Part shown: one piece after another, positions 6,104 through 28,364 of the stretch
Layout: each line of letters starts with the position of its first letter
How positions within the stretch are numbered: the first letter of the stretch is position 1
Source: a phage
Reading direction: 5' to 3' (one strand)
Assembly: GCA_033178465.1 (NCBI GenBank)
Contig: GCA_033178465.1_4726.2
DNA: 41,138 nucleotides
Translations under genes and position numbers: made by a program
The notes under the pieces: generated by a model
The model's input: the letters and a program-made list of their open reading frames with translations, nothing else
Told to the model about the DNA's origin: nothing
The model's database searches: none

Positions 6104-7678
6104 TTACAATTCAAAATCTTCATCGATAACGCGCTGGGTAAGCACTTTGTCGCTGAAGAACTCCACCTTGCGCTGATGGTATTTACGGTGCGCTTCGATA
6201 GATGTACATACCAGATACCAGAACGTTGGTGTCATTCCTTCAAACTTCCCTTTCAGCTGACGCAGTCGTCCCAACACCTGAATGTTGCCGGTTCGTGACC
6301 CCATCGCTAACGTCATGAACGTCATCACCAAGTCAGGAAGGTCGATACCGGTACCTGCCGATTTCACCGTCGTAACGCTAATATCGTTATCCAACAAGAC
6401 CATGAAATCTTCTTCAGCAGTATAAGGACCGATCTCTAACTCAGGAATACGTTCACTGAGGTAATGCGACAACGACTTACACATATCAACGGTTGCACAA
6501 TACACCAGCATCTTCATACCTTCCTGATACTGGTTCATGAAACCTTTGATGATAACCGTATAGATAAAGTTGAAATACGCGAGTTTGAGTTGCTTGTTCT
6601 TCATGATAGACTGTTCGAATATCGTGTGTGAATAAGCTCCACCAAACCCTTTGTATCTGACTTTATCTGTACTGCGTAGTCGGTACGTTACCGCATTTAC
6701 CGCAATGTATTTCTTGTATTCGCCTTTCGCATAACGGGCTTCTTTCGGATACATCAAATACAGCATCTGTTCGATAAACGGATCATCGGATACCGCTGTT
6801 GCCGACAGATAAATGATTTCCGGAATATTGGCGTAACACTTGACCTTAAACAAGAAATGCAATGCTTCGTGACACTCGTCATGAATCAGCAAACCTATGC
6901 CGGTCTTTTCCCAAAACTCAGCGGGATGGAAGGCATATGGCGCAACGCAGTTATTCTTCTCGTAGTCCGCAATATAACGTTGGAACATGTTCAAGGAGAA
7001 CAATGCGATTTTGAAGTCGAGTTCACCTTGTTCAACCAAGGTTTGAAACTCCAGCATGCTGTAACGAGGAATGTCGGGATGCGGTGGATCCTCCTTAGCG
7101 TTCCCACGTATTTCGATAACGTCCCCTGGTTCCATCCCGAAGAAGTTCAGTAGTGAGCTTCGCCAACCTGGCATGTATCTCGGCGACAGAATGATACCCG
7201 TCCGTACACCACGTCGGAAGGTAATCTCCTGCGACATGGCCGTTTTACCAGACCCTGTTTGAGCGGTGTTTAGGCTCATTCTGAAGGGGGTATCCTTACC
7301 CCCGTCCATGTACTCCAACCATTCTTGCTGATCTTGACGCCATGGAAACTTCCATTTCTTTACGAACTCCACTTCCTTACCTGGAACCGGATCATGGTAA
7401 ACGATTTCCAACCACTCTTTTCGTATCCCTCGGGAAAAGATAAAATCCAAAAACGATTTCAACTGTTCACGGAGTAAGTATACCTCGCTATAATCGCTTC
7501 TTGCCGCGGCATACGTGTTTATGGTATCGGTAACCATTCTCCGTGTACGAGGGTCACGCCGTTTCCTCAGATGCAAACAACGGTCTCGAAGGTAATGGCC
7601 TATCAAATGGGCAAATCGAAGTCCGTATCCGCTCAGCCTCATGCCATGCGAGAAGACGTCGATACGAGCTAACTTCAT
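6104..7678 (-). CDS. SF2 helicase (DExH-box ATPase)
   Basis: Motif I TGSGKT, motif II DECHE, motif III SAT, motif V-like TVKSAGTGIDLPD, motif VI-like GRLRQ. Start overlaps the stop of 7675..9681 (ATGA). Confidence 0.65.
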   Translation of the reverse strand: MKLARIDVFSHGMRLSGYGLRFAHLIGHYLRDRCLHLRKRRDPRTRRMVTDTINTYAAARSDYSEVYLLREQLKSFLDFIFSRGIRKEWLEIVYHDPVPGKEVEFVKKWKFPWRQDQQEWLEYMDGGKDTPFRMSLNTAQTGSGKTAMSQEITFRRGVRTGIILSPRYMPGWRSSLLNFFGMEPGDVIEIRGNAKEDPPHPDIPRYSMLEFQTLVEQGELDFKIALFSLNMFQRYIADYEKNNCVAPYAFHPAEFWEKTGIGLLIHDECHEALHFLFKVKCYANIPEIIYLSATAVSDDPFIEQMLYLMYPKEARYAKGEYKKYIAVNAVTYRLRSTDKVRYKGFGGAYSHTIFEQSIMKNKQLKLAYFNFIYTVIIKGFMNQYQEGMKMLVYCATVDMCKSLSHYLSERIPELEIGPYTAEEDFMVLLDNDISVTTVKSAGTGIDLPDLVMTFMTLAMGSRTGNIQVLGRLRQLKGKFEGMTPTFWYLVCTSIEAHRKYHQRKVEFFSDKVLTQRVIDEDFEL

Positions 7679-9681
7679 AACGTGATTACATCCTCCGGTT
7701 TAGGTTCTTTACGCGGTAGAAGCATGTAGTCGATCGGATGATCCGGCTTCATGGTTGGGATATAACTGTTCGGGTTTTGGAACGCATCCAGTTGCTCTTG
7801 GTGAGCGAACTTCATACTCAAGGAGCGCATGTTCATATTCTTCTTGAAGGTACTGAAGTATCGTGTTGTTCCCTGTTTCGGCATGCGATAATCTTTCGTG
7901 TGTGGCGAACGAATCATGCTGGCATAGAGAATAACATCGAGATGCGAAAGGTTCATTCGCAGACGCTGGGCACACAGACGATGCCAATAGTACAACACGT
8001 TTGCAACTTCTTCCGGCGTTGCTTCGTCTTCCGAAAGGAATCCGGCACTGAAAGAACCTTTCCCGAATTTGAACTCACGTTCGATTTCTTTTGCGTATTC
8101 CATCATGTTTTTGTGGATTAACGGCATCTGGAATAACGTACGTGAATTGTCCCAATGTTTCAAGTCGAAAATCACAATCCCGTCAGACGTCACTTCCCAG
8201 CTATGGCGTTTAAGATAACGGATAAACGCTTTACTCGGGACAACAGGACGACCGCAGAAATCGAAATTGACTTTAAGCTTACGATAGCTTTCATCTTTCC
8301 TGTCGTAAATCTCCATATCACAAAGCGTCATGTTAAACAGACGTTGCGGTATCAGCGAACTGATTTCTTCCGCTTCCGCTACGTCGTACAACATGTTCGC
8401 AAGACCTAACTTCATCTTAATCAACACGTGTTTACCTTTCAGCTCACGTGCGAGTTTGATGTCGTTCATGTTCTGGCTGTAGCGAAGGATATGTTGATAT
8501 TCCGGTGGGATTGGTGCTGTGGATACCGTTGACGAACCATCGTGGTGTTTGGTAGAAAGAATGTTCTGCGTTACCTGTTGCGAACAGGTACGCGCTGCAC
8601 CGTCGCCGACATTATCAGTCAGTGCGAAGTTATGACTTAATTCACCGTAACATGTCGTACAGACCCCAGCAGGATCGGGATGATGACAATAGTTAACGGA
8701 GCGCATGCGTACCGTCGTACCAATCAATTCTTTCATGTGTGGTTGTATCGCTACCAACGAACCGTCATCACGAATAATGAATCGACCGTGGAAGCCACGC
8801 AGGTCGGTCTCATCACGGATAGGCATCGGGATGGTCTCTTTACTACCACAATCACCAGGATGGAGTCGTTGTACAACCGCTGTCGCTATCTGAAGTTCAC
8901 GACCGAAATATTCAGACTTTTTAATCTGCTCTTTGTTGAACAGCAACGATTTCGCCGCAGAACGACTTTCTTTCAAGCTGTCGGGAAGAGAGATCAAACC
9001 AGCTGCGTATGACCGCATTACTGGATCACGGAATATCTCGGAGTTAATATCAGTCAAGAATCCACGCATCCCAATACACTGTAGCACCTGCCCAATCGAA
9101 ACGTGTTCGGTTCTTACCGCACGTGCAATAGGGTTTGCATGTAGCGTTTTATCGGTGCTCAGTACCTTCGTCAGTTTCTTGTATGCGCTTTCAATGCCTT
9201 CGCGGGTGGGTTCCGCTTCGGCGATGATTTTCTTAACTTCGGGGTGTACGGTAATCTGATAAAAATCATCCGCGCAAATCGTTGTTACGTATTCCTCCAA
9301 CGCATACGTAAAGAAGTTATATACATTGTTAAACATATCGAACAATGCTTTCCAGAGAACCTCACGATTCTCTTGTGGATAAGCATACATGCATTGACGA
9401 TACGCTGCGCTTTGCAACGCAACCGATGAACCCGCTGTGAACTTGCGTTTATCGACCAGGTTCTCTTTTGTCAATGGTGTCTCAGGATACATGCGATGCA
9501 CAGACCAGTGCATGTAACTAAAGAAAATGCGTCGCGCACGTAATTCATGAACACCATCGTCCATCTCGATATATACACGGTCATTAGGCTGTGCCCATTC
9601 GAACACCTCATCAACCGGCCAGTGCATAAGCTCGCGTGCCCTCACACGACGTTTCGTGGTGGTTGTCTGTGTTGTAATCAT
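7675..9681 (-). CDS. multisubunit RNA polymerase beta' subunit, C-terminal fragment (trigger-loop region)
   Basis: 668 aa. The segment CHHPDPAGVCTTCYGEL...GDGAARTCSQQVTQNILSTKHH parallels E. coli beta' CDTDFGVCAHCYGRDL...[21 protein letters not shown] (recalled from memory). Confidence 0.5.
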   Translation of the reverse strand: MITTQTTTTKRRVRARELMHWPVDEVFEWAQPNDRVYIEMDDGVHELRARRIFFSYMHWSVHRMYPETPLTKENLVDKRKFTAGSSVALQSAAYRQCMYAYPQENREVLWKALFDMFNNVYNFFTYALEEYVTTICADDFYQITVHPEVKKIIAEAEPTREGIESAYKKLTKVLSTDKTLHANPIARAVRTEHVSIGQVLQCIGMRGFLTDINSEIFRDPVMRSYAAGLISLPDSLKESRSAAKSLLFNKEQIKKSEYFGRELQIATAVVQRLHPGDCGSKETIPMPIRDETDLRGFHGRFIIRDDGSLVAIQPHMKELIGTTVRMRSVNYCHHPDPAGVCTTCYGELSHNFALTDNVGDGAARTCSQQVTQNILSTKHHDGSSTVSTAPIPPEYQHILRYSQNMNDIKLARELKGKHVLIKMKLGLANMLYDVAEAEEISSLIPQRLFNMTLCDMEIYDRKDESYRKLKVNFDFCGRPVVPSKAFIRYLKRHSWEVTSDGIVIFDLKHWDNSRTLFQMPLIHKNMMEYAKEIEREFKFGKGSFSAGFLSEDEATPEEVANVLYYWHRLCAQRLRMNLSHLDVILYASMIRSPHTKDYRMPKQGTTRYFSTFKKNMNMRSLSMKFAHQEQLDAFQNPNSYIPTMKPDHPIDYMLLPRKEPKPEDVITL

Positions 9682-9780
9682 TATTACTTTCCGATTTAAA
9701 TGGTTTTATCATACGGTTTACCAAATCCGTTGGACTTTACTATCGTTGTGATAGCATCGGGAATCCCTTCCCTTAGGTTA

Positions 9781-9805
9781 TGTAGGTGTTAATATATCTC
9801 CACTG
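9781..9805 (-). promoter_or_regulatory. possible weaker variant of the early-promoter motif (minus-strand GGAGATATATTAACACCTAC)
   Basis: Partial match to the TATATTAC motif family, about 100 nt upstream of the beta' C-terminal gene start. Confidence 0.2.
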
Positions 9806-9826
9806 CCGGAGTAAAAGTCGGCAACA

Positions 9827-10312
9827 TTACCCGGCTTTCTGTCGTAGAGCGTACGGATCCATAGCGTCTGATATATCCGAAACAACCGTGAGAATGAAGC
9901 CCTTTATCTGTCTCACTTCGGTCACACGCAATCCTTTATCGTTACGGTATACGTTTTCTTCACCAACCAACTTTGGTCGGATAACATAAACGCCATCAAC
10001 AAACGGGAATGTCGAATACGGATAAACACCAATAGAAATGATGTTTGGATAATCGCCTCGAAGGTCACGTCCGAACTTATCGACTCGACCATAAATTGCC
10101 CCATCCACACCTTCCACTTCAATGAGATCATTTCTAATATCCTGAAATAGCTGCTCTAACGTGTCGGCGGGATACGCGTATGCGACGCCTAACGCTGGAT
10201 CCTCAATGGTTTTGACATTGAATCCGTTAAGCCAAACAATCCGTTCATTCGCCCATGTTTCTTCATATACCGTTAACCCATCGCCGTATATGTTGGCGTG
10301 TGCTATCTCCAT
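9827..10312 (-). CDS. hypothetical protein
   Basis: 161-aa ORF with GAGGAAA upstream of the ATG. Confidence 0.55.
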   Translation of the reverse strand: MEIAHANIYGDGLTVYEETWANERIVWLNGFNVKTIEDPALGVAYAYPADTLEQLFQDIRNDLIEVEGVDGAIYGRVDKFGRDLRGDYPNIISIGVYPYSTFPFVDGVYVIRPKLVGEENVYRNDKGLRVTEVRQIKGFILTVVSDISDAMDPYALRQKAG

Positions 10313-10426
10313 AATCTCATTTCCTCTTCTACGTAGAAATAGATGACATGTTGGATATACGTTGCCTTTGCATATATTGCTTTATTTCCGTCAGAAATAA
10401 CGGAAAATAAAAACAACGACATAGTT

Positions 10427-10456
10427 CCCTCCCACCTCCACATGGGAGAGGGAGGG
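10427..10456 (-). terminator. terminator hairpin (CCCTCCC ... GGGAGGG family)
   Basis: Inverted repeat just downstream of the 10470..10832 stop; a T-rich tract follows on the minus strand. Confidence 0.5.
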
Positions 10457-10469
10457 CTATTCGTGTTTA

Positions 10470-10832
10470 TTACTCTATGCTGTCTTCTTCAACACAATCC
10501 TCTTCGGAACCGTCGAACGTTTTCTGCACTGCGGTGGTATCCCAGTTGGCAGCGTAATCAGCCATCGCTTCGCGCAGCGCTTCTTCACCAGCATCACCAG
10601 CCAGGTCAAGCACAACCAAACCCTGTGCGACGTTTTGAGCAACGGTATCGATAACGGTCGCATCTTCTTCAAAACTACGTACCGGTTCAATGGTGCCTAC
10701 ATCAACAGCATAGTTCGTGGTCGCTGTAAGCACGGCGACTTGTAGCGCATTGCTATCTTCATCATGCAGTGCTGCTTCAATACCGATCGGACGAGCCAGT
10801 TCTTGCAGTGTTAATTTGCGAATTAAGTTCAT
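10470..10832 (-). CDS. hypothetical acidic protein
   Basis: 120-aa ORF with GAGGAAAAC Shine-Dalgarno upstream. The overlapping plus-strand ORF 10343..10654 is judged spurious. Confidence 0.55.
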   Translation of the reverse strand: MNLIRKLTLQELARPIGIEAALHDEDSNALQVAVLTATTNYAVDVGTIEPVRSFEEDATVIDTVAQNVAQGLVVLDLAGDAGEEALREAMADYAANWDTTAVQKTFDGSEEDCVEEDSIE

Positions 10833-10864
10833 TATGTTTTCCTCAGGTGAATGTTAGCAATCGT

Positions 10865-11284
10865 TTAAAACTTTAAAACTTTTTCGATACGATGGTTGAC
10901 GAGTTCATTGAACGACTCTTCAGCTTGTTCGATGATTTCATCAACGTCGATATCTAATTGTTGGGGTTGGATAACATGCTCTTTCATGGTTTCCAGCCAG
11001 TATTCGGCTTTAATCATGACGTTAGCAACGTGTTCGACCTGGCTGCGTATGTCGACGATCTGGCAGTCAGGATTGTTAATATCGATGATGTGTCCGTGGT
11101 GGTTGATAAAACCTAGCTTATTTGATGCCCTTACCGCATCGCGGGTAAGTTCTTGCAAGATTAAATTATTAACGTAGTTCACTGCTACGGAACGATTTTC
11201 GTTGTCACTCATACCAGGGATCCTCTTTAAGTCGTCACATTCTAGTGTTAAGCAGTTAAAATAAACCGTTCCTTTTATCAGCAT
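10865..11284 (-). CDS. hypothetical protein
   Basis: ORF 10865..11290; the second ATG (11284) has better spacing from the GGAGGAGG Shine-Dalgarno, which is itself the 3' arm of the upstream terminator hairpin. Confidence 0.5.
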   Translation of the reverse strand: MLIKGTVYFNCLTLECDDLKRIPGMSDNENRSVAVNYVNNLILQELTRDAVRASNKLGFINHHGHIIDINNPDCQIVDIRSQVEHVANVMIKAEYWLETMKEHVIQPQQLDIDVDEIIEQAEESFNELVNHRIEKVLKF

Positions 11285-11290
11285 AAACAT

Positions 11291-11319
11291 CCTCCTCCCA
11301 CCACATGGGCAGGAGGAGG
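11291..11319 (-). terminator. terminator hairpin (CCTCCTCC ... GGAGGAGG) whose downstream arm doubles as the ribosome-binding site of the next gene
   Basis: Inverted repeat immediately after the 11331..11741 stop and immediately before the 10865..11284 start. Confidence 0.45.
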
Positions 11320-11330
11320 CGTAATATGCA

Positions 11331-11741
11331 TCAGAAAGGAGGACGATCTTTAAATTCTAGCAACGTGTCTTCGAAGCAAGCGATAAGTTCAGACTGCAAT
11401 TCGGTACGGCCTTGTTCACCGAAGAGTTCCAGCAACATTAATCCCCGAGCGGTCTTCGTAGCAACCTCTTCGCAGATGCGGAGATCGTGAACTTCATCAT
11501 CGTTGACATCTTTACGCAACTGTGCCGCAATGGGCTTAGGATTGCCGTTTTCATCGTGTTCGTCACGAAATGCATCATAAGCCGCATCGATGTTCGCGAT
11601 CCGTGTCAACCCTTCAGAATCCCGCCAGTCTCGATATAATCCAAGAAGACGATTATGATTCTTCGTTTTGACGTTCGGTGCTGGAAGGTTGCGCAACAGA
11701 TGTGGCGTAATCATTGCTATCACGCTATCCGAATGATCCAT
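11331..11741 (-). CDS. hypothetical protein
   Basis: 136-aa ORF with GAGGT Shine-Dalgarno. Confidence 0.55.
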   Translation of the reverse strand: MDHSDSVIAMITPHLLRNLPAPNVKTKNHNRLLGLYRDWRDSEGLTRIANIDAAYDAFRDEHDENGNPKPIAAQLRKDVNDDEVHDLRICEEVATKTARGLMLLELFGEQGRTELQSELIACFEDTLLEFKDRPPF

Positions 11742-11752: not shown

Positions 11753-13921
11753 TTAGCTTTCGCAGTCATCTGCGTCGATGATTTGTCCGCCAGCAACGTT
11801 CAGCTGATGATACAGAATCCTCAACGCACGGTTGCCGCCAATGGGATACTTCTCGAAGTTGGTCGCAATAGGAATCGCTGACGGCTTATCGGTCGCATAA
11901 ATGCTTTCAGTGATGCTATCCACCTGTTTTGGATTGTTCGCATAATCCATAAAGACGCTTGCGAACCATCCGCCAGCAAAGGCGGTAACTTCGCGATGTT
12001 CAGATTCACCACAGTAACGAGTTGGTTGCTCTTTACCCGGAGAACTGTATTTATCGCTATTACTGAGTTTCGACGGTAATCCGTGCGCTTGCAGTTTAGG
12101 GATGCCCACAGCCGACCAATCGTTCGCCGTCTTCTCTAACATCATGATGTACGTGTCACCGATCGCAATATCGTTCTTGGTTGTCCGCCACTGTCCAGAA
12201 CGCCCACGGTACCGTACGGGACCTTTCTTCAACGGGAACTCACGAATCAGATTCTCCATACGTTCTGAACCTGCTGCGATACTGTCCGTCGGGATATAAA
12301 CTTCCGTACCGTGGCGTTGTACGTACCGTAAATGATCCCATTTATCCTCATCCGTGATACAGTATTTTTCAACAACCTGTTCCACGAACTCAGGACTGAC
12401 GATATAGTAGTAGCGCATCAGTGTGTTCCAAGCGGTCTCCAGATCGCCCGCATCCATCACTGGTTTCAGTTCACGCATGATCTGATCACCAACGCCGTTG
12501 ATGTACGGTGCGTTAACACGACTTAAACTCATCCTTTTGATTACCGTACTATCGTCGAACATGAAGTCCGCAACGTTACCCCATTGGTCGACCGGCATTT
12601 CATCGTCTTCCATGATGTCGGTTACGACGAATTTATCACCCGCCATACCAGTGAATTTAAACCCGATACCTGGAACAACGTCGTACGTGTACGTGATGGT
12701 CACACGCCAATCATCGAGATTCTCTTTTCGGTAATCGCGAGTCGGTAGCACATGACGTAGCTGTCCGTTAGGATTGCGGATATCAATACCGTGTTCAGCA
12801 TCAGCCAGGTTCAACCACCACATCACCGTTTGATGATGACGTATCGGCGTACCAACGCGTTCACGTTCGTACTTACGAACAGCATCCTGAATTCGGGTGT
12901 AAAGCAAACCGATTGCGTTCTCGTATTTCAGGAATTGACGATACGGAGGACGCATCTTCTCTTCCATCATAATCGCACGCTCGCGGGCTTGACGTCCAGA
13001 ACGACGATGTCGATCGCTGACAACATCGATATCCGTTACACGCGCATTCGGTTCAGCGTAAGTGAGGTCGTCGTAAACATAATCCACGCGCTGAAGGTTA
13101 CACGTCATCATGTCAACAACGCTGAGGATAGGATCGATTTCGCGTGTTGCTGCGAGTAACCCATCCTTACGAATACGCTCACCGTTCTCGGGTATTGCTT
13201 GATATACCTCATCATCACCGTAGAGATTGATTGGGTATCGTGATTTACCTGATGTGATCGTTCGCTTCTCAATGCCGGTACTGGTGAAATGCTTCAATAC
13301 ACCACGACGGGCAACACCACCATCCTCAATACACTGATAGAAGCTACCGAAACACACTTTGCAATCGCGACCGTAACCCCACTCGCGCGTTTCTTGATTG
13401 ATCGCTGGACTTTCCATCAAACGAGAATACCGCGGTACGATCTGGCCTCGACGAAGGGAATGGAACAAGTTGGTTGGTCGAAAACGGAAACCGTACTGCT
13501 GATGCATGATGTGATGCTCGGGCACTTCAAGCAAGCGTAGCTCGTGACGGTTACCATCCTCTTGGTTTTCATACAGCACGTAATGCATCGTGTTTGTTTT
13601 GATGCTGTTTGCTGTATGCCCCGGTTGGAAACGTGGGATGATATCTATGATGCGAGATTCAACTGGAAACTCTACTGACCAAGTGTTCTGTCCGTACTGG
13701 TATTCAATCCCCGTCGTTAATCGGGACGGCTTCGCATCTTTGATAACCAACGCTTGGCTAAGATGTCCACCAAACATCGCAGCGCGCTGTGCTGAGTTAT
13801 AATGCAGTAGCCCGTTAAGTCCAGTCCCTACGCCAGTATACTCCTGTTTAATGGGAATGATTTTACCTTCAGCGATTGCCTGCTTCACAGATTCATAAAG
13901 AGGTTTTTCTTTATAATGCAT
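11753..13921 (-). CDS. multisubunit RNA polymerase beta subunit, C-terminal fragment
   Basis: [49 protein letters not shown] parallels E. coli beta [62 protein letters not shown] parallels [37 protein letters not shown] parallels RQAVPTLRADKPLVGTGME. Start taken at the ATG at 13921 (GGAAG Shine-Dalgarno) rather than the ORF-track start at 14086. Confidence 0.55.
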   Translation of the reverse strand: [722 protein letters not shown]

Positions 13922-13952: not shown

Positions 13953-14306
13953 ATGTCTAACACGCCCCTGAACGACTTTCTTAAGACAAACCCCGATGAC
14001 CTCATCCACGATCTTGATTTCAGGAACGTTGTTGAGATGCATCTGGAATATTTCAAAAATGCCGGACTGGTCTCTACGATAGACATACCACCCGAACGCG
14101 CCTACGAATTCGATGGTAACTTTTATGGATTGTGTCGTGTTCTGCTCGGTGAGGGCAGTGAACCAATGCACTGGATAACCATGAGACTCAATGGTTATCG
14201 CGACCCTACGGAATACACCGCCGATGTTCTAACCATGAAGATTGTCGATACAAGCGCAATCAACACATTAAAACAACAGTACCGCACAATCCACTACAGC
14301 GCTTAA
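13953..14306 (+). CDS. hypothetical protein (plus-strand gene embedded between minus-strand genes)
   Basis: ORF track begins at a TTG (13941); I take the ATG at 13953, which has GAGGT upstream. Ends at a terminator hairpin. Confidence 0.4.
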   Translation: MSNTPLNDFLKTNPDDLIHDLDFRNVVEMHLEYFKNAGLVSTIDIPPERAYEFDGNFYGLCRVLLGEGSEPMHWITMRLNGYRDPTEYTADVLTMKIVDTSAINTLKQQYRTIHYSA

Positions 14307-14371: not shown

Positions 14372-15652
14372 TCAGAAACGATTTACGGTACGTCCTGTCC
14401 ATGCGCTCAGGATGTTGTTACGTTCCATCTCAGCCCGACGACGTAAACCGTTTGGCGACTGCGGTGCTTGCGGCATCCCCCACCCAGCAGGCTGCATACC
14501 CATACCAGGCCAAGCGGAATTATTGAACATCGTACCGTTACGTTCCGCAACACGGTTCATCAGCGCATCAAACGTGCTATTACCTGCCGGTTGGTTACCG
14601 CCACTTTCCCACTGATTAGGTTGGACAGGTGCGGTTTTACCTAACAGGTTATCGATCACACTGCCTGTTGAAGCAGGACGCGGTTGTATACCTTCATGTG
14701 CAGCTGCTGATGGATTTGGCTTAACCGTCGGCTGTGGACGACTGTTCAGCGTTACACCCATGTTGTATTTCGCTGGCGGAATCTGACCACGATGTTGATT
14801 GATCGGTTCAAAATCCTCAACCCAGGTAACATCACAGTAACCGTTCTCTTTACCGTCGTACTTATCACCAAACAGTTTGATGAGATTGTTCAGCGGTTCC
14901 ATCAGCTTAGCGAAGCTGTGGATAAGACAATCGAAATACGGAGCATGAGGATCGCTTGACCCGGCGTTGTACGTTTCGCTTACTTCACCCGCGTGCGGGA
15001 TAACGTACTCGACCAGGTTTCTCAGCATGTTAAGATCTTTCTTGGAAATCTCAACACCACACCAATACGTTTTCTTATCTTTCGTGCTGATATGTTCTTC
15101 TTCCATGAACGGGAAAGTAACTACTGCAACACGGGTCATCTTCTTACCCATGTAGGTTGCGCCGGTACGACGAAGATAAATTTTGGACAGCGTATACGGC
15201 GTATCACGTTTCAGCCAAACGGTGACCAGTTTACCCAGGGTCGTTAGTGTTTTATCGCTGGCGTCCGCAAGGATGTTGAAGAACTCTTTTTGCTTCGGTC
15301 CGAAACGTTTTGCTTCTTTAGGATTGATTGCGGTTTCAACCATCCAAATCAGCATGGAGCATAGCGTGGCGTTAAAACGAACAACCATCGCACGACGCAG
15401 GAACTGAAGTACTTCCGATTCGCCGTTCATCACGTCTTCACTTAGCGGATGGAACAGCACACGTTCAGCCAGCTGATTTCCGGTACGGACTTCGGAAACC
15501 GGCATCAGCAACGGCATGCTTTCCACGGTAGCGGCAACTGCAACAACTTTACCATCCCCATCCGTAAAACGATATTCTAATTCGTGGGCGTCATTCTCAA
15601 AATAGTTAACGCTCTGTAGTGCTTTGCGATAAGCTTCGATAAGCTTCGACAT
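14372..15652 (-). CDS. hypothetical protein with a low-complexity Q/P/G/N-rich C-terminal region
   Basis: 426-aa ORF with AAAGGAAA Shine-Dalgarno; the last ~110 residues are compositionally biased. Confidence 0.6.
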   Translation of the reverse strand: MSKLIEAYRKALQSVNYFENDAHELEYRFTDGDGKVVAVAATVESMPLLMPVSEVRTGNQLAERVLFHPLSEDVMNGESEVLQFLRRAMVVRFNATLCSMLIWMVETAINPKEAKRFGPKQKEFFNILADASDKTLTTLGKLVTVWLKRDTPYTLSKIYLRRTGATYMGKKMTRVAVVTFPFMEEEHISTKDKKTYWCGVEISKKDLNMLRNLVEYVIPHAGEVSETYNAGSSDPHAPYFDCLIHSFAKLMEPLNNLIKLFGDKYDGKENGYCDVTWVEDFEPINQHRGQIPPAKYNMGVTLNSRPQPTVKPNPSAAAHEGIQPRPASTGSVIDNLLGKTAPVQPNQWESGGNQPAGNSTFDALMNRVAERNGTMFNNSAWPGMGMQPAGWGMPQAPQSPNGLRRRAEMERNNILSAWTGRTVNRF

Positions 15653-15707: not shown

Positions 15708-17294
15708 TTAGAAGTTGCCTTTGGTAGTTACCGCATCCACCAGGTTAAACAAATCAACACTCAGCTTATACACCTCCTGCTGGCTACGGTTGAGCAGCGG
15801 GCTGTATGCGGATGGGTTGATGTTCGGCATGGTGTACGGAATCGGTGCAGAGCCGTCAACGCTGATCTTGAACTGGCTGTCCAGGAACAGGTTAATCGCA
15901 CCGCTCACCATAACCGCATTCGGGTTGTTACCCAACATGGAGGGTAGGATATTGGTAATCATGTCAGAACGCATTTGTTCAGCAGCACGGTTACAATCGT
16001 ATCCTTTAATGAACGGTACAGCGTCGGTAACCGCAACCGCCCACTGACCAGGCATGATACCGAGTTCTGGGTGACCATGGTTGTCAGCAATGAAACGGAA
16101 CGACTCCAACATGCGATACGTCATCGCAGCAGGCATCATTGCAGCAAGCGATGAGCAATACAGTGTTGGATAATCGATCACGTCCCAGCTCTGGCTGTCG
16201 GTCGGCATCCAACCAAACTCGGTGGTTGCTGATGTACCGCGACGGGCTTCCACATACGGGAATAACGTTAAGACGTCACGGATATGTTCACCGAACATCC
16301 GTTTCATGTCCGCCCAACTCAGGCTACCGCTGAAAGCGAACCCTTCATCACGCATAATCGCACCGAATACCGGATGCGCAACCAGCGGTTCTTCACGAAC
16401 AGCTTGAGCGGCTTCTACGTAAATATCCTCGTTCTCTGCGCTACCTGGATGAGACCCGCTTTCGTACGTCTGACGAATAGCCCCGACGTTATCGAAGGCT
16501 TTTCTTAGATAGATGGTTGGGATGTTCGTATCAGCACTAGCCGGTTTGATTTTCTCCGTTGCGAAACACATTGCTGCTTCCACACCACGGAAAACCGGTT
16601 CCGGTTGCGGTGGGTAGGATGTACGATGAACCACGTCAGCGTAGGCGGGATCGAACTGCTGCATTACGTTCTGCATGGCTGGGTCCATGAACTGGTTATC
16701 AAAACCACCATTACCTACCCAACGTGCTGTTGATGCATAGGTCAGCGTATCCTGAACACGCGTACTGAACTGAACATCACGATTAACAGGGTCGTATGCG
16801 CCGGTCAACAGGTTCGTTGCGTCCATCGGGGTTGCACGAACGATTTGCTTACCGAACATATCTGTCGTGGTTGTTTCGGTTACCTGGATTACGTTCGTGA
16901 AGAAGAACACCAGTTCGTTCGGCAGATCGATAGCACGCGTTGTAAACGCATCGAGGCTTACAGAATGGTCGGTGTATCCAGAAATGTAATGGACACGCTT
17001 GGTTCCTGGTGCAAGGGCCAAGGATTCTTCTACAGCCATCATGAAATGGAAACGACGTGTGCCCCAACCATTCGCAATCTCCGAAACCCCCTCAGGTTCT
17101 GCAGACTGTTGTAACAAACCGGTTGCAAGCTTGTTGATTGCTGATGGGGTTGTTGCCGTACCGAACTTCGTCGTGTTAATAAAGTCTTCGATGCTACGCA
17201 TGCTATCTGCATGGAATCGTAGTGGACGACGTTGTACATTGTTGTACGGTGCGGTTTCAACCATCAGTATTTCACGAACATTCATCGGGATCAT
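15708..17294 (-). CDS. hypothetical protein
   Basis: 528-aa ORF with AAGAGGAAA Shine-Dalgarno; its start lies 1 nt from the stop of the upstream gene. Confidence 0.6.
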   Translation of the reverse strand: MIPMNVREILMVETAPYNNVQRRPLRFHADSMRSIEDFINTTKFGTATTPSAINKLATGLLQQSAEPEGVSEIANGWGTRRFHFMMAVEESLALAPGTKRVHYISGYTDHSVSLDAFTTRAIDLPNELVFFFTNVIQVTETTTTDMFGKQIVRATPMDATNLLTGAYDPVNRDVQFSTRVQDTLTYASTARWVGNGGFDNQFMDPAMQNVMQQFDPAYADVVHRTSYPPQPEPVFRGVEAAMCFATEKIKPASADTNIPTIYLRKAFDNVGAIRQTYESGSHPGSAENEDIYVEAAQAVREEPLVAHPVFGAIMRDEGFAFSGSLSWADMKRMFGEHIRDVLTLFPYVEARRGTSATTEFGWMPTDSQSWDVIDYPTLYCSSLAAMMPAAMTYRMLESFRFIADNHGHPELGIMPGQWAVAVTDAVPFIKGYDCNRAAEQMRSDMITNILPSMLGNNPNAVMVSGAINLFLDSQFKISVDGSAPIPYTMPNINPSAYSPLLNRSQQEVYKLSVDLFNLVDAVTTKGNF

Positions 17295-17295
17295 T

Positions 17296-18882
17296 TTATT
17301 TTTTTCCTCTTAAATTTACTACGTGTTCATTTAATCGAACAACTAATTGCACAAGCTGCTGACGGATATCTGCTGGACAAAGCATCAATCCTTTACGATC
17401 AGCTGGGACTTTCTCAAGGATTTCCGGGCCTGCTGCTGAAACATCCCAGTCCCATTCACAAAACGCATCGGCCACCATGTTAATACCGACAACCGGTAAA
17501 GTTGTACGTTCATCTTCATACATGGCGTGTGGATACAATTTATTGACAGTAATGATCTCCTGTGGTTTTAATTGGTGGATAATCTGATAAACATCGTCGC
17601 GTTTAACCTGGATACCTACGGTCAGCGCTGCCAGTTGAGGAAAACCCCAATGGTCTAACAAACAAGCTGCGATCGCTAACGCTTTTGCCTGATGCACGGC
17701 TTCAATCGGTGCCAGACTTCTCGCCGGAAGATGGCTATCAAGCAACCATTGCGCCAGTGCTCGGCATCCGCGGTTGATTGGTTTTAACTCAACGGTGTCA
17801 TCGTGTTTAGCGTACGTGTATCCGTCGTAACGTTTTGCGATACGCGCATACATGTCTTCAACTTTACCGTAAGGTGCCGTTTCGTCGACGTCGTGCAACA
17901 CACGTTCCATCTGGGTAAGATACGCGATGTCAAGAATGAGTACACGCGGTGAACGTTTATCTTTCACCATCAACGCATCAATCACGCCTTGACTGTCTTC
18001 ATCTTGCGCGTTCCCTCGTGGGGTTTTCTCACGAATCGGTCCACTGAAACGTCGTTCCGTACAAAGGTTATTCACATAGCTAAAGATCAGTGTTACCAGA
18101 TGCGTACAACTCACCAACACCCCATCTTTAACGACAGGCTGTACGGCTTGGTCCAAGTCGCGTACGGCGAGACGGCGGACGATGGCTTGTGAACGCAACC
18201 AGCCGGGCACTTTCTCCGTCGACATGTAATCCACGGTCATCGACAGCGTGATCTTTTTATCACCCGTCTGTGCGCGGATATAGTCTTCCAGTCGGTCGTA
18301 AGCGGCGATATCGTGAATGCGTGTTTTATACATCAACGACATAGCCACTTCTTCTTTACGAACCGTTCCGTACGTTTTCCCTGCGTCAATCAGAAACTCT
18401 GCCCAAATCGGCACCATCAGACGGACGTAGATCGCTAACGCCGTTAACTCAACGTAATCATTTCGTAAATAGGTTTTCTCAGGAATATCATCCTCACCTA
18501 ATGTTGTTTTCATGTCCGGCGGTAATTTTACCCAACCTGGGGTATTACACAATGCCAGAATCTCTTCGTACACAACCGGTTTGTAAATTTCACCAACAGC
18601 GCGACTCAACTCCTCCATTTGTTGTTGTGGAGCAATGTAGTTATCCATCGCTTCACGTGCTTTAACGAACCCTTCGAAGATGTCGTCAATTCGACGTGGG
18701 TTCTTTTGTTCTATCCAGGCGAGATACTTGTTAATCTCCCGCATCTGATTGCTAGCCATATCCCCATCAATCTTGATGTAACCCTGACCTGAAAATTCCA
18801 CAGTACGTCCATCACGGTGTTTGATGAGATAGTGATCCAGCTTTTCTTTTCCTTGCGTCGTAATGACGGGCACTATGTGCAT
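17296..18882 (-). CDS. hypothetical protein
   Basis: ORF 17296..19017; I take the internal ATG at 18882 (MHIVPVITT...) because it has AAAGAGG 5 nt upstream. Weak resemblance of GYIKIDGD to the beta-subunit GxFIINGxER motif is noted but unproven. Confidence 0.55.
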   Translation of the reverse strand: MHIVPVITTQGKEKLDHYLIKHRDGRTVEFSGQGYIKIDGDMASNQMREINKYLAWIEQKNPRRIDDIFEGFVKAREAMDNYIAPQQQMEELSRAVGEIYKPVVYEEILALCNTPGWVKLPPDMKTTLGEDDIPEKTYLRNDYVELTALAIYVRLMVPIWAEFLIDAGKTYGTVRKEEVAMSLMYKTRIHDIAAYDRLEDYIRAQTGDKKITLSMTVDYMSTEKVPGWLRSQAIVRRLAVRDLDQAVQPVVKDGVLVSCTHLVTLIFSYVNNLCTERRFSGPIREKTPRGNAQDEDSQGVIDALMVKDKRSPRVLILDIAYLTQMERVLHDVDETAPYGKVEDMYARIAKRYDGYTYAKHDDTVELKPINRGCRALAQWLLDSHLPARSLAPIEAVHQAKALAIAACLLDHWGFPQLAALTVGIQVKRDDVYQIIHQLKPQEIITVNKLYPHAMYEDERTTLPVVGINMVADAFCEWDWDVSAAGPEILEKVPADRKGLMLCPADIRQQLVQLVVRLNEHVVNLRGKK

Positions 18883-23075: not shown

Positions 23076-23088
23076 GAGGAACTCCTCT

Positions 23089-23611: not shown

Positions 23612-23645
23612 GGCAGCCCCTCCCCACCCGAAGGTAGGGAGAGAC
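23612..23645 (-). terminator. terminator hairpin with UUCG-type loop (minus-strand TCTCCCTACC-TTCG-GGTGGGGAGGGG, then U-rich tract)
   Basis: Inverted repeat directly after the 23657..24142 stop, followed on the minus strand by CATTCTTTTTTATTTTTG. Confidence 0.55.
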
Positions 23646-23656
23646 CGCAAATATAC

Positions 23657-24142: not shown

Positions 24143-24207
24143 TAGGATTTAATTTCCAATATAAGAGCAATGTGATATGCCTTATACAGTCGATTGATGT
24201 TGTACAT

Positions 24208-24235
24208 CACCTAAGTAATATAGCCGTGAAAAATG
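24208..24235 (-). promoter_or_regulatory. putative phage early promoter (minus-strand TTTTCACGGCTATATTACTTAGGTG)
   Basis: Second copy of the conserved motif, upstream of 23657..24142. Confidence 0.5.
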
Positions 24236-24240
24236 TTGGA

Positions 24241-25038
24241 TTAACGTGTTCTCCTATCACGATGCGTATACGACTGAAGACCGATGTCCATATGTGGTAA
24301 CGTCAGCGTCTGCCAGATCTGTCGTGCGTAACGATCGAGCGTATGATCGTCAGTAACACAATCGACGGGTTCGATGAGGTGAGTCGTATACTGGCTTTTC
24401 TCAGAGAAAGGTTCGATGTTAGCTGTATCTCCTAATCCGCTTTTCACCGTGAAGACAAGACGTGTGACTATCATCGCCCTATGTTGCTGTTCGTTATAAC
24501 GAAGGCTGCGGTATACGGCATAGCTTCCTCCTTTTAGGCTTCGGGTATAACGAAGGTCGGAGGTCGTCTCGGAAATCTGATACAACATCCAATCCAACGT
24601 ATCACGCCAGTACGCATCATCCACATCAGGAACTGTAATACCATACCGCGTAGGCAGCAGTTCTAAAAGCAATTTATAAAGTCCGCGACGCAGACCATGC
24701 TCTTCTGTTTCCGATAAACCGTTTCCAACGTAACGTGAAATACGTGTACGTAAATACGTACGGATGAACATATTCGCCATCAGTGTTTTCACTCTGCTAC
24801 TGGTATCCTCAAAGCGATCAACGCTGAAACTCGTTTCAATCAGCCGTCCATTAAAATACAATGCGGCAACATACATCGCGTTATTACTATCACGTTCAAT
24901 GTTTAAACGACCGCAGATATTAGCCGCGTCGTTCATGGTAAATTCTAATTTATCGTGTTCGATACGATAGATAATATCCTCCTGGGTTGCTAGGCTCGCA
25001 ATACGACGATAGCCCGGAGAAGTACGTTTTACACTCAT
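24241..25038 (-). CDS. hypothetical protein
   Basis: ORF 24241..25077; start taken at the ATG at 25038 (MSVKRTSPGY...) with GAGGA upstream. Confidence 0.5.
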   Translation of the reverse strand: MSVKRTSPGYRRIASLATQEDIIYRIEHDKLEFTMNDAANICGRLNIERDSNNAMYVAALYFNGRLIETSFSVDRFEDTSSRVKTLMANMFIRTYLRTRISRYVGNGLSETEEHGLRRGLYKLLLELLPTRYGITVPDVDDAYWRDTLDWMLYQISETTSDLRYTRSLKGGSYAVYRSLRYNEQQHRAMIVTRLVFTVKSGLGDTANIEPFSEKSQYTTHLIEPVDCVTDDHTLDRYARQIWQTLTLPHMDIGLQSYTHRDRRTR

Positions 25039-25080
25039 GATTGTCCTCGTTTTCAATTTTAAGATTGCATGCGGCATAAA

Positions 25081-25105
25081 CCCTCCCCGCCTTATGCAGG
25101 GAGGG
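25081..25105 (-). terminator. terminator hairpin (CCCTCCC ... GGGAGGG)
   Basis: Inverted repeat after the 25121..25759 stop, followed on the minus strand by TTTATGCC. Confidence 0.5.
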
Positions 25106-25120
25106 TAGCCATTAAATGGA

Positions 25121-25759
25121 TTAACCTAATTTACCACCGGCGATGTTGGTGAAATCTTCGCCATCAGGAACTTGCAGTAGGATACGTGCCATGTCCCAGT
25201 TGGTTAATGTAATTGCTTTATCATCGATACTCAGTTCTGGTAGGTCGAGTTCATGATCGTCAAACTCGTAGGAAATACTCCACGTTTCGTCTGTTTTAGG
25301 ATCGGTTATCAACACACCGTCTGTTACACGCATGTAGTCCGGATGCAATTCATTACTGAATGTGCTGAACGGATCGGTGTAACATTCAGCATATCCCTCG
25401 ATTTGCTGACGCTGTGCCTTCGTACGTAATTCAGGGCACGCCATGATCAGTTGTCGAGATATGCCGTTTGCAGCTCGGAAATCCTCCACGGTGTTACATG
25501 GCATAACCACATCGTCATGGAAGATGTTCTCCGATTGTCTCAACAGCGTCTTACGGAGTTCAGCATAGTTTATCTGATTGAATGCGTCGAACGTTGCTAA
25601 CGATTCAGCGTAAAAATGCTTTACGTGTTCGCTTGCGCCGCCGAGGCTATTCATCAGCTTGTGGCCGTACTCCATAAAGCTTTTATCGAGACCGGAGGAC
25701 ATTTCTCCGAACCTCAGTGCACGATAACTGTCTCGTCCACCTGTAAATATTTGCGCCAT
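25121..25759 (-). CDS. hypothetical protein
   Basis: 212-aa ORF with a strong AAAGGAGGA Shine-Dalgarno. Confidence 0.6.
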   Translation of the reverse strand: MAQIFTGGRDSYRALRFGEMSSGLDKSFMEYGHKLMNSLGGASEHVKHFYAESLATFDAFNQINYAELRKTLLRQSENIFHDDVVMPCNTVEDFRAANGISRQLIMACPELRTKAQRQQIEGYAECYTDPFSTFSNELHPDYMRVTDGVLITDPKTDETWSISYEFDDHELDLPELSIDDKAITLTNWDMARILLQVPDGEDFTNIAGGKLG

Positions 25760-25774
25760 TACAGGCGTCCTCCT

Positions 25775-26008
25775 TTAGCAATGGTTGTTAGTTGCTTCTA
25801 TTTCGTCAAGATACGGTTCTACGTCATCGCCCTCCACGAATTCGTTGAACCAACAGTCAATGGTAGAAATAACCGGCGACTGGTGTTCACATTTCTTAGA
25901 TACCTTAAAAGGTACGTTATTATCCATCATACCGAGTTCGGGTCGAAAACGCCCGAAATGTTTCGCAGTCCAAATGTCTGGGACGATATGGTTGTTCATC
26001 GTAGTGTT
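25775..26008 (-). CDS. RNA polymerase beta' N-terminal subunit, proposed terminal exon (exon 4)
   Basis: In-frame translation NTTMNNHIVPD...ELGMMDNNVPF parallels E. coli beta' (DGD)QMAVHVP...ARALMMSTNNILSP, the region just after the catalytic motif. Begins right after a CTG that follows a conserved hairpin (26012-26037). The ORF track lists this as a 79-aa ORF 25775..26014. Confidence 0.5.
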   Translation of the reverse strand, partial: NTTMNNHIVPDIWTAKHFGRFRPELGMMDNNVPFKVSKKCEHQSPVISTIDCWFNEFVEGDDVEPYLDEIEATNNHC

Positions 26009-26357
26009 CAGCATGAGTCGCTACCTCATACCCGCAGCTTTACCTGCAGCTTCCGGTGTTACCGGAATGTCCAGAATACATCTTATCCATATTCCAAATG
26101 GAACGTAGGACTTCCGCGCTGGATCTCGCTTGAGACCACGTATTCGTTGAACGTTCTCCTGAACGGAGCTTCGCTGCTGATCGAACATTGTTACGTACGG
26201 TAGGCGTCCCCGAAGGGATTGTCATTGAAGCCGCGTACATCCGCTACCTTGTTTCTACCTTATCGGTTCCTCTTACGAGGCGTAGCGGCCTTAGCCCTTC
26301 CCAGCAATTCACGGAATCCAAGCTCTTCCTTTCGGAAGACAGGGCCTATGATTAAGC
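26009..26357 (-). ncRNA. group I intron-like element C (ORF-less), approximate boundaries
   Basis: Minus-strand core elements in canonical order: P-like GAATTGCTGGGAAGGG (26315-26300), Q-like GATCAGCAGCG (about 26183-26171), R-like GTTCAACGAATACG (about 26143-26130), S-like TAAGATGTATTC (about 26090-26077), then a 3' hairpin with GTAGCGA loop and CTG before the exon. Confidence 0.5.
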
Positions 26358-26367
26358 GTCACCGTCG
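26358..26367 (-). CDS. proposed 10-nt micro-exon (C GAC GGT GAC) supplying the DGD of NADFDGD
   Basis: Lies between S element of intron B and P element of intron C; preceded by ...AACAG (candidate terminal G). It is the only placement found that restores the catalytic aspartate triad in frame. Inference only. Confidence 0.35.
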
Positions 26368-26743
26368 CTGTTATCGACTATATCTTCATCCTCGTTGCGA
26401 GGAGTCTCCCGTTTTGGTCTGTGTTTAACAGAACCTACTCTACTCGACATCGCGTCTTTCGATAGTCTGTGAGCATACATCTTAACGAACATTCGTGGAT
26501 TCCTAAACAGGTGAATGTTCTTGTTGAGATGCTTCGCTGCGGATTATTCCCGTCCTACCTCTTTTACCATACCCAGTTCATTACGCTGGCCCTCATCTGT
26601 GTCACCACGATGAGTTGGTGTGTAGTCCGATTACAGAAACTTCCCGTCAATTAGAGAGTTTTAACTACGTTCCTGTTACCAGAAACCAGATCCCGACGGT
26701 ATCAATAAATCAACGTAAGTTATTGATTTAATTGAAAAAACTG
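26368..26743 (-). ncRNA. group I intron-like element B (ORF-less), approximate boundaries
   Basis: Minus-strand P-like AATTGACGGGAA (about 26657-26641), P5-like GGGTATGGTAAAAG, Q exact AATCCGCAGC (26544-26535), R-like GCTCACAGACTATC (about 26478-26461), S-like GAAGATATAGTCG (26387-26375). The 3' tail after S is unusually short (7 nt), so the junction is uncertain. Confidence 0.5.
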
Positions 26744-26765
26744 AAATCTGCATTATCTAAATCTT
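26744..26765 (-). CDS. proposed 22-nt micro-exon (AA GAT TTA GAT AAT GCA GAT TT) supplying ...DLDNADF
   Basis: In-frame N-A-D-F codons at 26754..26744, immediately after the intron A 3' hairpin plus CTG and immediately before intron B. Inference only; the exon may start at 26762 instead. Confidence 0.4.
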
Positions 26766-27140
26766 CAGTATGGTTCGCTACACCATACCCGCACATACGT
26801 GCAGCTTACGTCTTTCACGTAAGAAGAGACTATATCTTTCACCCTCAGCATTATCTGGTCGGGGCCCCCATTTCGGCGGTCAGATGACCGGTGGTTTCCC
26901 ACGCCGCTTGGCCCTAACGCCCGTAAGCGATAGTCGTTGAGCACATCTCCGTTCTGGAGACTTCGCTGCGGATTCCCCAATCCTTGCCGCTTTTACCATA
27001 CCTGAATGATTAGTTCAGCCCCACACTCTGTTCCCAGGCGTGGTTGGTGGACAAGGCTCTAAGTAGGTTCCCGCATTAGGGAGTTCCTCGTAACAACATT
27101 TCTGCGTTACTGGGCCTAACGACCCTTTCAAGATCATCAC
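26766..27140 (-). ncRNA. group I intron-like element A (ORF-less), approximate boundaries (5' splice site estimated 27130-27146)
   Basis: Minus-strand P-like TAATGCGGGAAC (27080-27069), P5-like CAGGTATGGTAAAAG, Q exact AATCCGCAGC (26974-26965), R-like CTCAACGACTATCG (26941-26928), S-like AAAGATATAGTCTC (26839-26826), and a 3' hairpin GGTATGGT-GTAGCGA-ACCATAC (26795-26770). Confidence 0.55.
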
Positions 27141-28364
27141 GCTTAACCCGATGGTATTATCCTGCGGATCGCGTTTAACCTTGGTGATTTCAAGACATTG
27201 GTTACTGCTTCGGTCAAGTGATGGGTTTCGAACAAAACCACACACAATCCCATCGAACGGTGTATCAGCAATAAGCTCATCGTGCAGCTCACTCATCATC
27301 GGATGATAATTACGGACATGTTCCGCAACGAACGCACGTGCAGCTCTTGGTGAATAACCACGATGGAATAACTTGGATTGGATATGTTCTTTATTGGTTA
27401 AAGTAAATGGCGCGTATGGGAAATGCAGATGATAATAACGATGGTTCGCTGTTATCGAACTGATTACGGTACGCGTGGTGAATGGATGTAATGTACCTAA
27501 TATGTTTTTACGTGTAATACCTTTCTTCTTACCGATGAACTCATCGAAAATCGCCGCGTGGTATTGCAGCAGCTTCAATTGCACTTTCGCCATCCAGTTT
27601 TCTTTCTTTCTGGCGCTCAAAGGTGTTGTTGGGTGATAGATACTATTCAACGTACCGATAGCATCGATCGCACCTTCCATTTTGCTATCCGCATAACGAC
27701 CGGTTGGCGTATTCTCGATAACGAACATCATGGCCGCAGGAAAGCTGATATACTGACTGAAGAACTTATCACGATGGATACGGATGAATTCTCGTAGCGT
27801 GTCAACTTTCTCCGTGTTCTTCGGTCCACGTAACGTCGGTCCTTTATACAAGATCTCCATGATGCGATCGAAGTTCTGTATAAAGCTATTTACACCACGA
27901 CGTATCCCGAATACATCGAATTGCTGCTCCAGATAGTTCTTGAGTTCGATGGGTCGTTTTACATTTGGACGGTAACTGGCATCAATGAGCCACGTCATCG
28001 TTTCAAAGCTTTTGATATTCAACTCGCTTGCCAGCACGAGATGGACCAACGGGTTAATGAACGCATCGATTCCTTCAGGAACGCGCGCCCAAACAGTCGA
28101 ACGAATCTCTTGTTCTGCTGGGTAGGTTACAACCGTTTTACAGTTTGGACACACCGTGCCGAGTAGCTCACCACGATTGTAGAAACCACAACCACATTGT
28201 GGTGTGATATCCAACGTATCGCTGGAGTAAACACGGGTGATAAAACTGTTTAATTTCTTCTTCTCTTCGACGACTTTTGTATCGTAATCATTCAACAAAA
28301 TCGGCGTAAAAGGAAGTTCTGCGAGCTGTCTATCGAAACTCACGATATCGAGCATGATGGCCAT
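27015..28364 (-). CDS. RNA polymerase beta' N-terminal subunit, exon 1 (ORF as listed; true 3' end probably about 27130-27146)
   Basis: Zinc-ribbon [20 protein letters not shown] matches the beta' N-terminal Cx(2)C...Cx2C; [26 protein letters not shown] parallels [35 protein letters not shown] parallels NRAPTLHRLGIQ. The ORF then runs into intron-like sequence and stops without NADFDGD. Confidence 0.6.
   Translation of the reverse strand: [449 protein letters not shown]

Follow-up and report, generated by a model that had tools for sequence, protein, structure and literature searches.

A phiKZ-type non-virion RNA polymerase encoded in a Goslar-like phage sequence, with a beta' N-terminal gene predicted to be interrupted by three group I introns

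Introduction

A 41,138-nucleotide stretch of phage DNA (NCBI GenBank assembly GCA_033178465.1, contig GCA_033178465.1_4726.2; the whole stretch is called the window, and unlabelled coordinates are positions in it) raises two questions: which multisubunit RNA polymerase (RNAP) is encoded there, and how its beta' N-terminal half could function when the open reading frame (ORF) for it lacks the catalytic motif NADFDGD. The original prediction, made from the letters alone, had proposed three ORFs as half-subunits of a polymerase of the kind known as the non-virion RNAP (nvRNAP) of phiKZ-like phages. From sequence comparison, the explanation in which we place high confidence is that four nvRNAP subunits of a phage like Escherichia phage vB_EcoM_Goslar (Goslar) are encoded in the window, that the N-terminal half of beta (beta N) is encoded elsewhere, and that the N-terminal half of beta' (beta' N) would be active only after the splicing of three introns. 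All nvRNAP genes and introns described below are located on the minus strand.

Results

Subunits of the polymerase

The three ORFs were found where they had been predicted, on the minus strand, with PHROG matches at 1e-113 to 1e-180. Their best solved relatives are chains A, C, and D of the phiKZ nvRNAP (PDB 7OGP), in keeping with the predicted arrangement; in the comparison with the characterised jumbo-phage subunit set, chains A, B, C, and D were matched at 1e-59, 6e-28, 1e-85, and 1e-86, respectively.

The C-terminal half of beta' (beta' C; 668 aa, 7675-9681) is a homolog of phiKZ gp74 and Goslar HOV27_gp165 and holds the F-loop, bridge helix, and trigger loop. It matched PHROG 3015 ('RNA polymerase beta subunit') at 4.7e-170, PDB 7ogp_D (phiKZ gp74) at 1.3e-86, and bacterial beta' at about 1e-4. 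In the alignment to bacterial beta', which also spans the bridge helix and trigger loop, the F-loop reads IGQVLQCIGMRGFLTD; the segment that had been called trigger-loop-like (VTQNILSTKHHDG, within '...GAARTCSQQVTQNILSTKHHDG') aligns with the bacterial trigger loop.

The C-terminal half of beta (beta C; 722 aa, 11753-13921) is a homolog of phiKZ gp71-73 and Goslar gp171, and its gene is uninterrupted. Matches were obtained to PHROG 3295 at 2e-180, to PDB 7ogp_C (gp71-73) at 1e-85, and to residues 1063-1241 of E. coli beta at 0.0065. The predicted extent of this gene was upheld: a start at 14086, the mechanical limit of the ORF, was rejected, as the ATG at 13921 is served by an AGGA ribosome-binding site and equals the annotated start in Goslar. 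The protein holds 'MPVDQWGNVADF' and 'GESEHRE' (aligned by eye), the E. coli beta counterparts of which we take to be MPYDENGTPVDI and GEMEVWA.

A further subunit (528 aa, 17296-18882) is a homolog of phiKZ gp68 and Goslar gp175; it matched PDB 7ogp_B (PHIKZ068) at 5.6e-28, phiKZ gp68 in tblastn at 1.5e-35, and PHROG 3209 at 5.5e-68. It is sigma-like, not a beta or beta' homolog. The gp68 protein is the fifth nvRNAP subunit, has no homology to beta or beta', and acts like a sigma factor (PMC7598289, PMC12908238). This ORF had been listed as a possible beta N and was rejected as such; being the gp68 homolog, it is part of the polymerase all the same. With beta' N, described below, four of the five nvRNAP genes (beta' N, beta' C, beta C, and gp68-like) are by homology present in the window.

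Pfam profiles, whose failure to place the ORFs had been proposed as a refutation of the assignment, gave a divided result, the raw ORFs nominally failing. Among the raw ORFs, beta' C (7675-9681) and beta' N had no Pfam match, and beta C reached 16.3 bits with Rpb2_6, below the cut-off of 23.4; the spliced beta' N matched RNA_pol_Rpb1_2 at 36.9 bits versus a cut-off of 25.3. The catalytic motif of beta' N escapes profile searches run on raw ORFs. Because Pfam is weak on the raw ORFs, family placement rests on PHROGs and on the solved phage RNAP structures.

Exon-intron structure of the beta' N gene

The ORF at 27015-28364 (449 aa) matched PHROG 2987 at 2e-113 and PDB 7ogp_A (gp55/gp56.1) at 1.4e-59. 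Its homology ends at residue 414, the remaining 35 codons (27121-27015) being intron sequence that is read through. The original prediction of beta' N plus additional exons was thus right as to identity and to the existence of those exons, and wrong as to extent, with the true exon 1 at 28364-27122.

Exon 1 (1243 nt) comprises 414 codons and the first base of a Tyr codon, and is homologous to phiKZ gp55 and Goslar HOV27_gp247. Intron A (27121-26757, 365 nt) follows this first base of the Tyr codon of YNADFDGD and is absent from Goslar. Exon 2 (26756-26744, 13 nt; ATAATGCAGATTT) encodes (Y)NAD(F); it is contiguous exon in Goslar, which has no intron A, and in a related locus, L013, which has neither B nor C. 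Intron B (26743-26368, 376 nt) matches Rfam RF00028. Exon 3 (26367-26355, 13 nt; CGACGGTGACGCT) encodes (F)DGDA, with two of the three catalytic aspartates, and is contiguous with exons 2 and 4 in L013 and in a second locus, L009. Intron C (26354-26000, 355 nt) is also present, unannotated, in Goslar. Exon 4 (25999-25775, 225 nt; 74 codons and a stop), beginning MNNHIVPD, was matched in tblastn with phiKZ gp56.1 at 2.7e-5. All three introns, each predicted to be of group I, fall within the codons for YNADFDGDAM.

The spliced ORF encodes 497 aa (roughly 57 kDa predicted), reads ...LKGYNADFDGDAMNNHIVPD..., includes YNADFDGDAMNNH, and also holds the peptide GYNADFDGDAMNNHIVPDIWTAK. The motif NADFDGD is present only in this product, that is, with the three introns removed. 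Against PDB 7ogp_A the spliced protein scored 1.6e-73 (raw ORF, 1.4e-59) and was aligned through residue 495, across both junction regions.

The predicted spliced junctions, GGGT|ATAATGCAGATTT|CGACGGTGACGCT|ATGAAC, are confirmed by natural alleles that lack the respective introns: Goslar without A, L013 without B and C, and L009-L011 without A, B, and C. At the junctions L013 and L009 read ...GATTTCGACGGGGACGCGATGAAC...; of the closest intron-less homologs, P0002 (65% identical) reads YNADFDGDAMNHH, and P0003 reads YNADFDGDEMNNH. For intron C, a 3' splice site after CATG (giving DGDALNTTMNNH) was rejected, although it can be aligned with a gap to phiKZ 'DGDQLNLTL'. The site was placed 12 nt beyond this point, giving DGDAMNNH, because P0002, P0003, L013, L009, the 3' tail of the phiKZ intron, and the P10 pairing agree on it.

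In the Goslar record NC_048170 (L001), positions 28771-32059 correspond to window 25775-28364, and beta' N is divided there into gp247 and gp185. Goslar gp247 is a truncated 423-aa coding sequence (CDS) with a read-through tail, ...YNADFSFFN; gp185, equal to exon 4, is listed apart as a 'hypothetical protein', its first five residues (MLNTT) being a spurious start; the record annotates one intron RNA. The subunit is therefore mis-annotated in the reference, and the four-exon model is needed.

Group I introns at the catalytic-site codons

From their sequences, introns A, B, and C are predicted to be IA-type group I self-splicing introns. Intron B matched RF00028 (26352-26734) with 50.7 bits and so exceeds the gathering score of 50. 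The match of intron A (26806-27142; 29.7 bits, E = 3.2e-5 in a 1.7-kb search) and that of intron C (a partial core, 26112-26316; 16.8 bits, E = 0.24) are below it. Intron C is related to the intron of phiKZ gp55 (nhmmer, 6.5e-11), which itself scores 75.6 bits in Rfam. No further introns were found by Rfam at E <= 0.1 elsewhere in the window.

Each of the three introns is preceded by U and ends in G. Pairings with the flanking exons (P1 and P10) were read from the sequence by eye, not computed. Intron A forms a 4-bp P1 (GGGU/GCCC) and a 5-bp P10 (UAAUG/CGUUA; CAUUA in relatives). The guide of intron B, CCGUCG|GGAUCUG, forms a 6-bp P10 with the start of exon 3 (CGACGG) and a 7-bp P1 with the end of exon 2 (CAGAUUU), with a U-G pair at the splice site; between Goslar (exon CCGACUU, guide GAGUCGG) and the window, this P1 has undergone two compensatory changes. 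Intron C has a short P1 (GCU/GGC, 3 bp) and a 4-bp P10 (AUGA/UCAU). The 13 bases of exon 2 are divided between the P10 of intron A and the P1 of intron B, and those of exon 3 likewise between the P10 of intron B and the P1 of intron C.

Introns of the C type were aligned from the window (C), L012 (C), L005 (C' and D), and L009 (D), intron D being a C-like intron at GCT|GAC, between the codons for A and D. Of 89 predicted pairs, 30 have compensatory changes. Inclusion of the P7 pseudoknot gives 95.9% paired cells versus 35-43% when the partners are slid, and double changes affect 32 pairs versus 1-2 in the slid controls; P7 variants are GAAUA/UAUUC, GAGUA/UACUC, and GAUCA/UGAUC. These 32 compensatory pairs back the core helices of the C family, among them the P3/P7 pseudoknot and a P7.1-like hairpin.

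No endonuclease ORF was found in the introns, there being no coding-strand ORF of >71 aa within 26000-27121. Goslar intron B carries the HNH endonuclease gp186 (HNH_3 at 31.1 bits, NUMOD1 at 24 bits), three bases before the 3' end of the intron, and this 1065-bp segment is missing from the window. Positions 26757-27123 are an insertion in the window relative to Goslar, colinearity breaking at 27123/27124.

A different account of the locus would have the beta' N gene decayed or truncated, with 27015-28364 giving a complete 449-aa product that lacks the catalytic motif, 25775-26014 a small unrelated gene, and the 1.1 kb between them non-functional intron debris. It would agree with the Goslar annotation of gp247 and gp185 as separate products, with the scores of introns A and C under the Rfam threshold, and with the lack of an endonuclease gene in all three introns. 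We consider it very unlikely. The two 13-nt exons supply exactly the missing NADFDGDA, in frame; the guide sequences pair and co-vary with both flanking exons; the ribozyme helices are preserved by the 32 compensatory pairs; the three-intron allele is kept in six independent genomes at 92-99% identity; gp55 and gp56.1 of phiKZ form a single chain in the purified, solved enzyme; and a second beta' N nvRNAP gene was not seen in the window. A spliced beta' N is the reading retained here.

Intron polymorphism

Eleven loci from IMG/VR and metagenomes (L004-L014) were compared together with the window, giving a set of 12 genomes with near-identical exons, among which five intron configurations occur at the NADFDGD codons. 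Introns A, B, and C without endonuclease are found in the window, L006, L007, L008, L012, and L014; B (with HNH) and C in Goslar; D and C' in L005; D only in L009, L010, and L011; and in L013 the sole intron is A, with an endonuclease-like ORF of roughly 1 kb (weak I-HmuI/HNH-like match, 26.7 bits, just under the cut-off). The site of the phiKZ intron, AAT|GCT, differs from the Goslar-like sites. Counting Goslar-like phages and phiKZ, there are five insertion sites in 27 coding bases, after bases 1, 6, 9, 14, and 27 of TATAATGCNGAYTTYGAYGGNGAYGCN.

Whether these 27 nt, encoding YNADFDGDA in nvRNAP beta' N, are a hot-spot for independently mobile group I introns is a proposal for which we see the chances as evenly balanced. 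Around the insertion sites the window and Goslar differ at 5/27 positions, all synonymous, versus about 98% identity elsewhere; such a pattern is expected from co-conversion and P1 co-evolution. C-like introns occupy two sites (D and C) with a common 5' exon end, GCU (AAYGCU, GAYGCU), and from their sequences could have spread ectopically by reverse-splicing transposition.

In L005 (5602-5620) intron C' is preceded by C (GATGCC|AGAGCC), not the usual U. Its P1 would hold a C-G pair where a U-G wobble is otherwise conserved at the 5' splice site, and this intron may not be splicing-competent. The read-through tails of exon-1 proteins vary, the proteins having 449, 434, 423, 422, or 421 aa. One of 422 aa (P0080, tail ILKG|STLICNFV) matches no characterised intron start (A, L013-A, B, D), and may reflect a sixth configuration, or else site A may hold another intron form with an endonuclease.

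Phage identity and gene order

A 22-kb query spanning the nvRNAP genes is 97% identical over 98% of its length to Goslar (NC_048170 / MK327938), and the 39 kb of the window compared with Goslar are collinear apart from two indels. These comparisons place the window in the genome of an E. coli jumbo phage that is Goslar-like and nucleus-forming (Chimalliviridae). Tblastn with phiKZ proteins showed a conserved order from gp54 (chimallin) to gp75 across window positions 30352 to 6104, with matches to gp54, gp55, gp56.1, gp59, gp62, gp65-gp71, and gp73-gp75. As in phiKZ, the chimallin gene (28457-30352; Pfam PF25677 at 1.7e-25) adjoins the beta' N gene.

Gene order bears on whether the ORFs could belong to the virion RNAP (vRNAP; phiKZ gp178/gp149/gp180/gp80 set). 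Chimalliviridae encode two paralogous split RNAPs that PHROG labels do not distinguish, and with no vRNAP structure among the PDB matches the best solved match is biased to the nvRNAP. Still, gp80 and gp149 had no tblastn match in the window, whereas gp55, gp71, gp73, and gp74 were matched over their full length at 1e-39 to 4e-90. The order of genes is that of the phiKZ nvRNAP block, including gp68, gp69, gp70, and the neighbouring chimallin, and the homolog of gp68, the nvRNAP-specific fifth subunit, is present. The probability left to a virion enzyme is very small; by sequence, the assignment is to the non-virion enzyme, with gp80 and gp149 unmatched and synteny with phiKZ gp54-gp75 complete.

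Least probable, to the point of being negligible, is that the matches are fragments of bacterial rpoB/rpoC or a plasmid or prophage remnant. Direct matches to bacterial beta and beta' exist and are weak, and many database copies are found in assemblies labelled Salmonella, E. coli, Shigella, or Enterobacter. The bacterial subunits, however, were matched only at E of about 1e-4 to 6e-3, versus 1e-86 for the phiKZ enzyme; the window is 97% identical to Goslar and has chimallin, PhuZ, PicA, and phage DNA polymerase genes; and the 'bacterial' contigs, at 237-248 kb, have the size of a complete Goslar-like genome. The locus is accordingly read as phage DNA.

The exon-1 protein cluster (90% identity) has 159 members, many of them on such 237-248 kb contigs in assemblies labelled Salmonella (S. 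enterica), E. coli, Shigella, and Enterobacter (E. hormaechei). The presence of Goslar-like contigs in isolate assemblies suggests that enterobacterial sequencing runs commonly contain jumbo phage, in a carrier state or as a contaminant. A scan of genome contigs found no relative.

The statement in the original prediction that beta N was not identified was borne out: phiKZ gp123 had no match in the window (best tblastn E = 1.6). In Goslar the gp123 homolog is located at 39951-41621 (E = 4e-49, 96% coverage), about 100 kb from the part that matches the window. With beta N so placed in a 97%-identical genome, it is therefore expected outside the window. None of the candidates that had been suggested for it was sustained. 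Besides the gp68 homolog, these were 15708-17294 (minus strand), without RNAP or PDB match and equal to Goslar gp174 (PicA), and 31768-33921 (minus strand), a divergent family B DNA polymerase (Pfam PF20286, divDNApol, at 2.4e-204). The gp70-like ORF at 14372-15652, without PDB match, was likewise rejected.

The product of 15708-17294 resembles the N-terminus of phiKZ gp69 (tblastn 6e-8), and its gene lies between those of the gp68-like RNAP subunit and a gp70-like protein, as in phiKZ. Goslar gp174 is PicA, an essential protein-import factor of the phage nucleus (PMC11087766). Also encoded in the window are two helicases and PhuZ, the latter assigned from the Goslar annotation; no tRNA genes were found in it. 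Four small ORFs (120-161 aa, without PHROG match) occupy 9827-11741 (minus strand) between the beta C and beta' C genes, which in phiKZ are adjacent. PHROG scans of ten neighbouring ORFs detected no further RNAP subunit.

Discussion

Proposed function of the polymerase

In the mechanism that we propose, the three group I introns would self-splice, joining exon 1, the two 13-nt exons, and exon 4; splicing would restore the Mg2+-binding motif NADFDGD and with it an active beta' N. Together with the beta N half (phiKZ gp123 homolog), presumably encoded elsewhere in the genome, the subunits would assemble into an alpha-less, rifampicin-resistant enzyme, by homology with phiKZ and AR9. By the same homology this enzyme would serve the middle and late genes of the phage, transcribing them within the nucleus that chimallin encloses. 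Co-purification, rifampicin resistance, and middle and late transcription are known for the nvRNAPs of phiKZ and AR9 (PMC7598289, PMC12908238).

Several points weigh against this explanation. Function is assigned by homology, at 24-31% protein identity to phiKZ. Pfam alone leaves beta' C unplaced and beta C only sub-threshold, and introns A and C score under the Rfam gathering score. The beta N gene lies beyond the window, so that for this genome its presence is deduced from Goslar. Finally, mis-splicing or exon skipping across the 13-nt exons could lower the yield of beta' N.

Split nvRNAP genes are already known, being a well-studied trait by which the Chimalliviridae are defined, and these genes carry annotations in Goslar, which is 97% identical; as such, the finding of split nvRNAP genes is of little significance. 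What is unusual is only that three introns without endonuclease follow in tandem around two 13-nt exons in the catalytic codons, and that intron presence or absence at this site is polymorphic. No literature describing Goslar or NADFDGD with this intron arrangement was found. The intron stack is a natural system for studying how accurate splicing is achieved by tandem group I ribozymes whose intervening exons have 13 nt, and bears on the competition for neighbouring sites between introns with and without endonucleases.

Comparison with known systems

Earlier work has described split nvRNAP genes and the gp68-like subunit, and also RNAP genes of chimalliviruses that hold group I introns with HNH endonucleases (PMC7598289, PMC12908238, PMC11620839). 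Goslar has the same gene order as the window, the same nvRNAP subunits (gp165, gp171, gp175, gp247 + gp185), and introns B and C at the same sites; in contrast to Goslar, the window has the additional 365-nt intron A one codon upstream of B and is without the gp186 segment.

With the nvRNAP of phiKZ (gp55/56.1, gp68, gp71-73, gp74, gp123; PDB 7OGP) the four subunits are homologous over their full length and have the same split points, and in phiKZ, too, the beta' N gene is cut by a group I intron inside the NADFDGD codons. The phiKZ gene has one intron there (aat|gct, with the HNH gene gp56), whereas the window has three endonuclease-less introns; the beta C gene, uninterrupted in the window, contains in phiKZ an intron with gp72. 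Bacillus phage AR9 is a uracil-DNA phage and is not known to form a nucleus. Its nvRNAP (PDB 7S00/7S01) is likewise composed of split beta and beta' and a gp68-like promoter-specificity subunit (PMC7598289), and is much more distant than that of phiKZ, conserved cores being detectable at 1e-7 to 3e-17.

For the intron stack, the nearest parallels are given in one source (PMC10136302): Staphylococcus phage Twort orf142, a single gene in which three group I introns occur together with an internal exon of 23 nt and exon skipping, and the Coxiella 23S rRNA gene, with a 34-nt internal exon between group I introns. Like Twort, the window has several IA-type group I introns packed in one phage gene with very short internal exons; relative to the 23 nt and 34 nt given in that source, its two consecutive 13-nt internal exons are shorter. 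Unlike those of Twort, the exons of the window lie in an RNAP catalytic motif, and skipping of either or both would shift the frame.

PhiPA3 gp210 (Birkholz et al. 2024) is the HNH endonuclease of a mobile group I intron that lies in an RNAP subunit gene of a nucleus-forming phage, and PhiPA3 and related co-infecting phages differ in intron presence or absence (PMC11620839, PMC12908238). The intron stack bears on whether intron content matters when co-infecting nucleus-forming phages compete, as it does for PhiPA3 and phiKZ. The PhiPA3 intron is in a virion RNAP gene, whereas those of the window are in an nvRNAP gene and, in contrast to PhiPA3, have lost their endonuclease genes, which survive in relatives only (Goslar gp186, L013 ORF).

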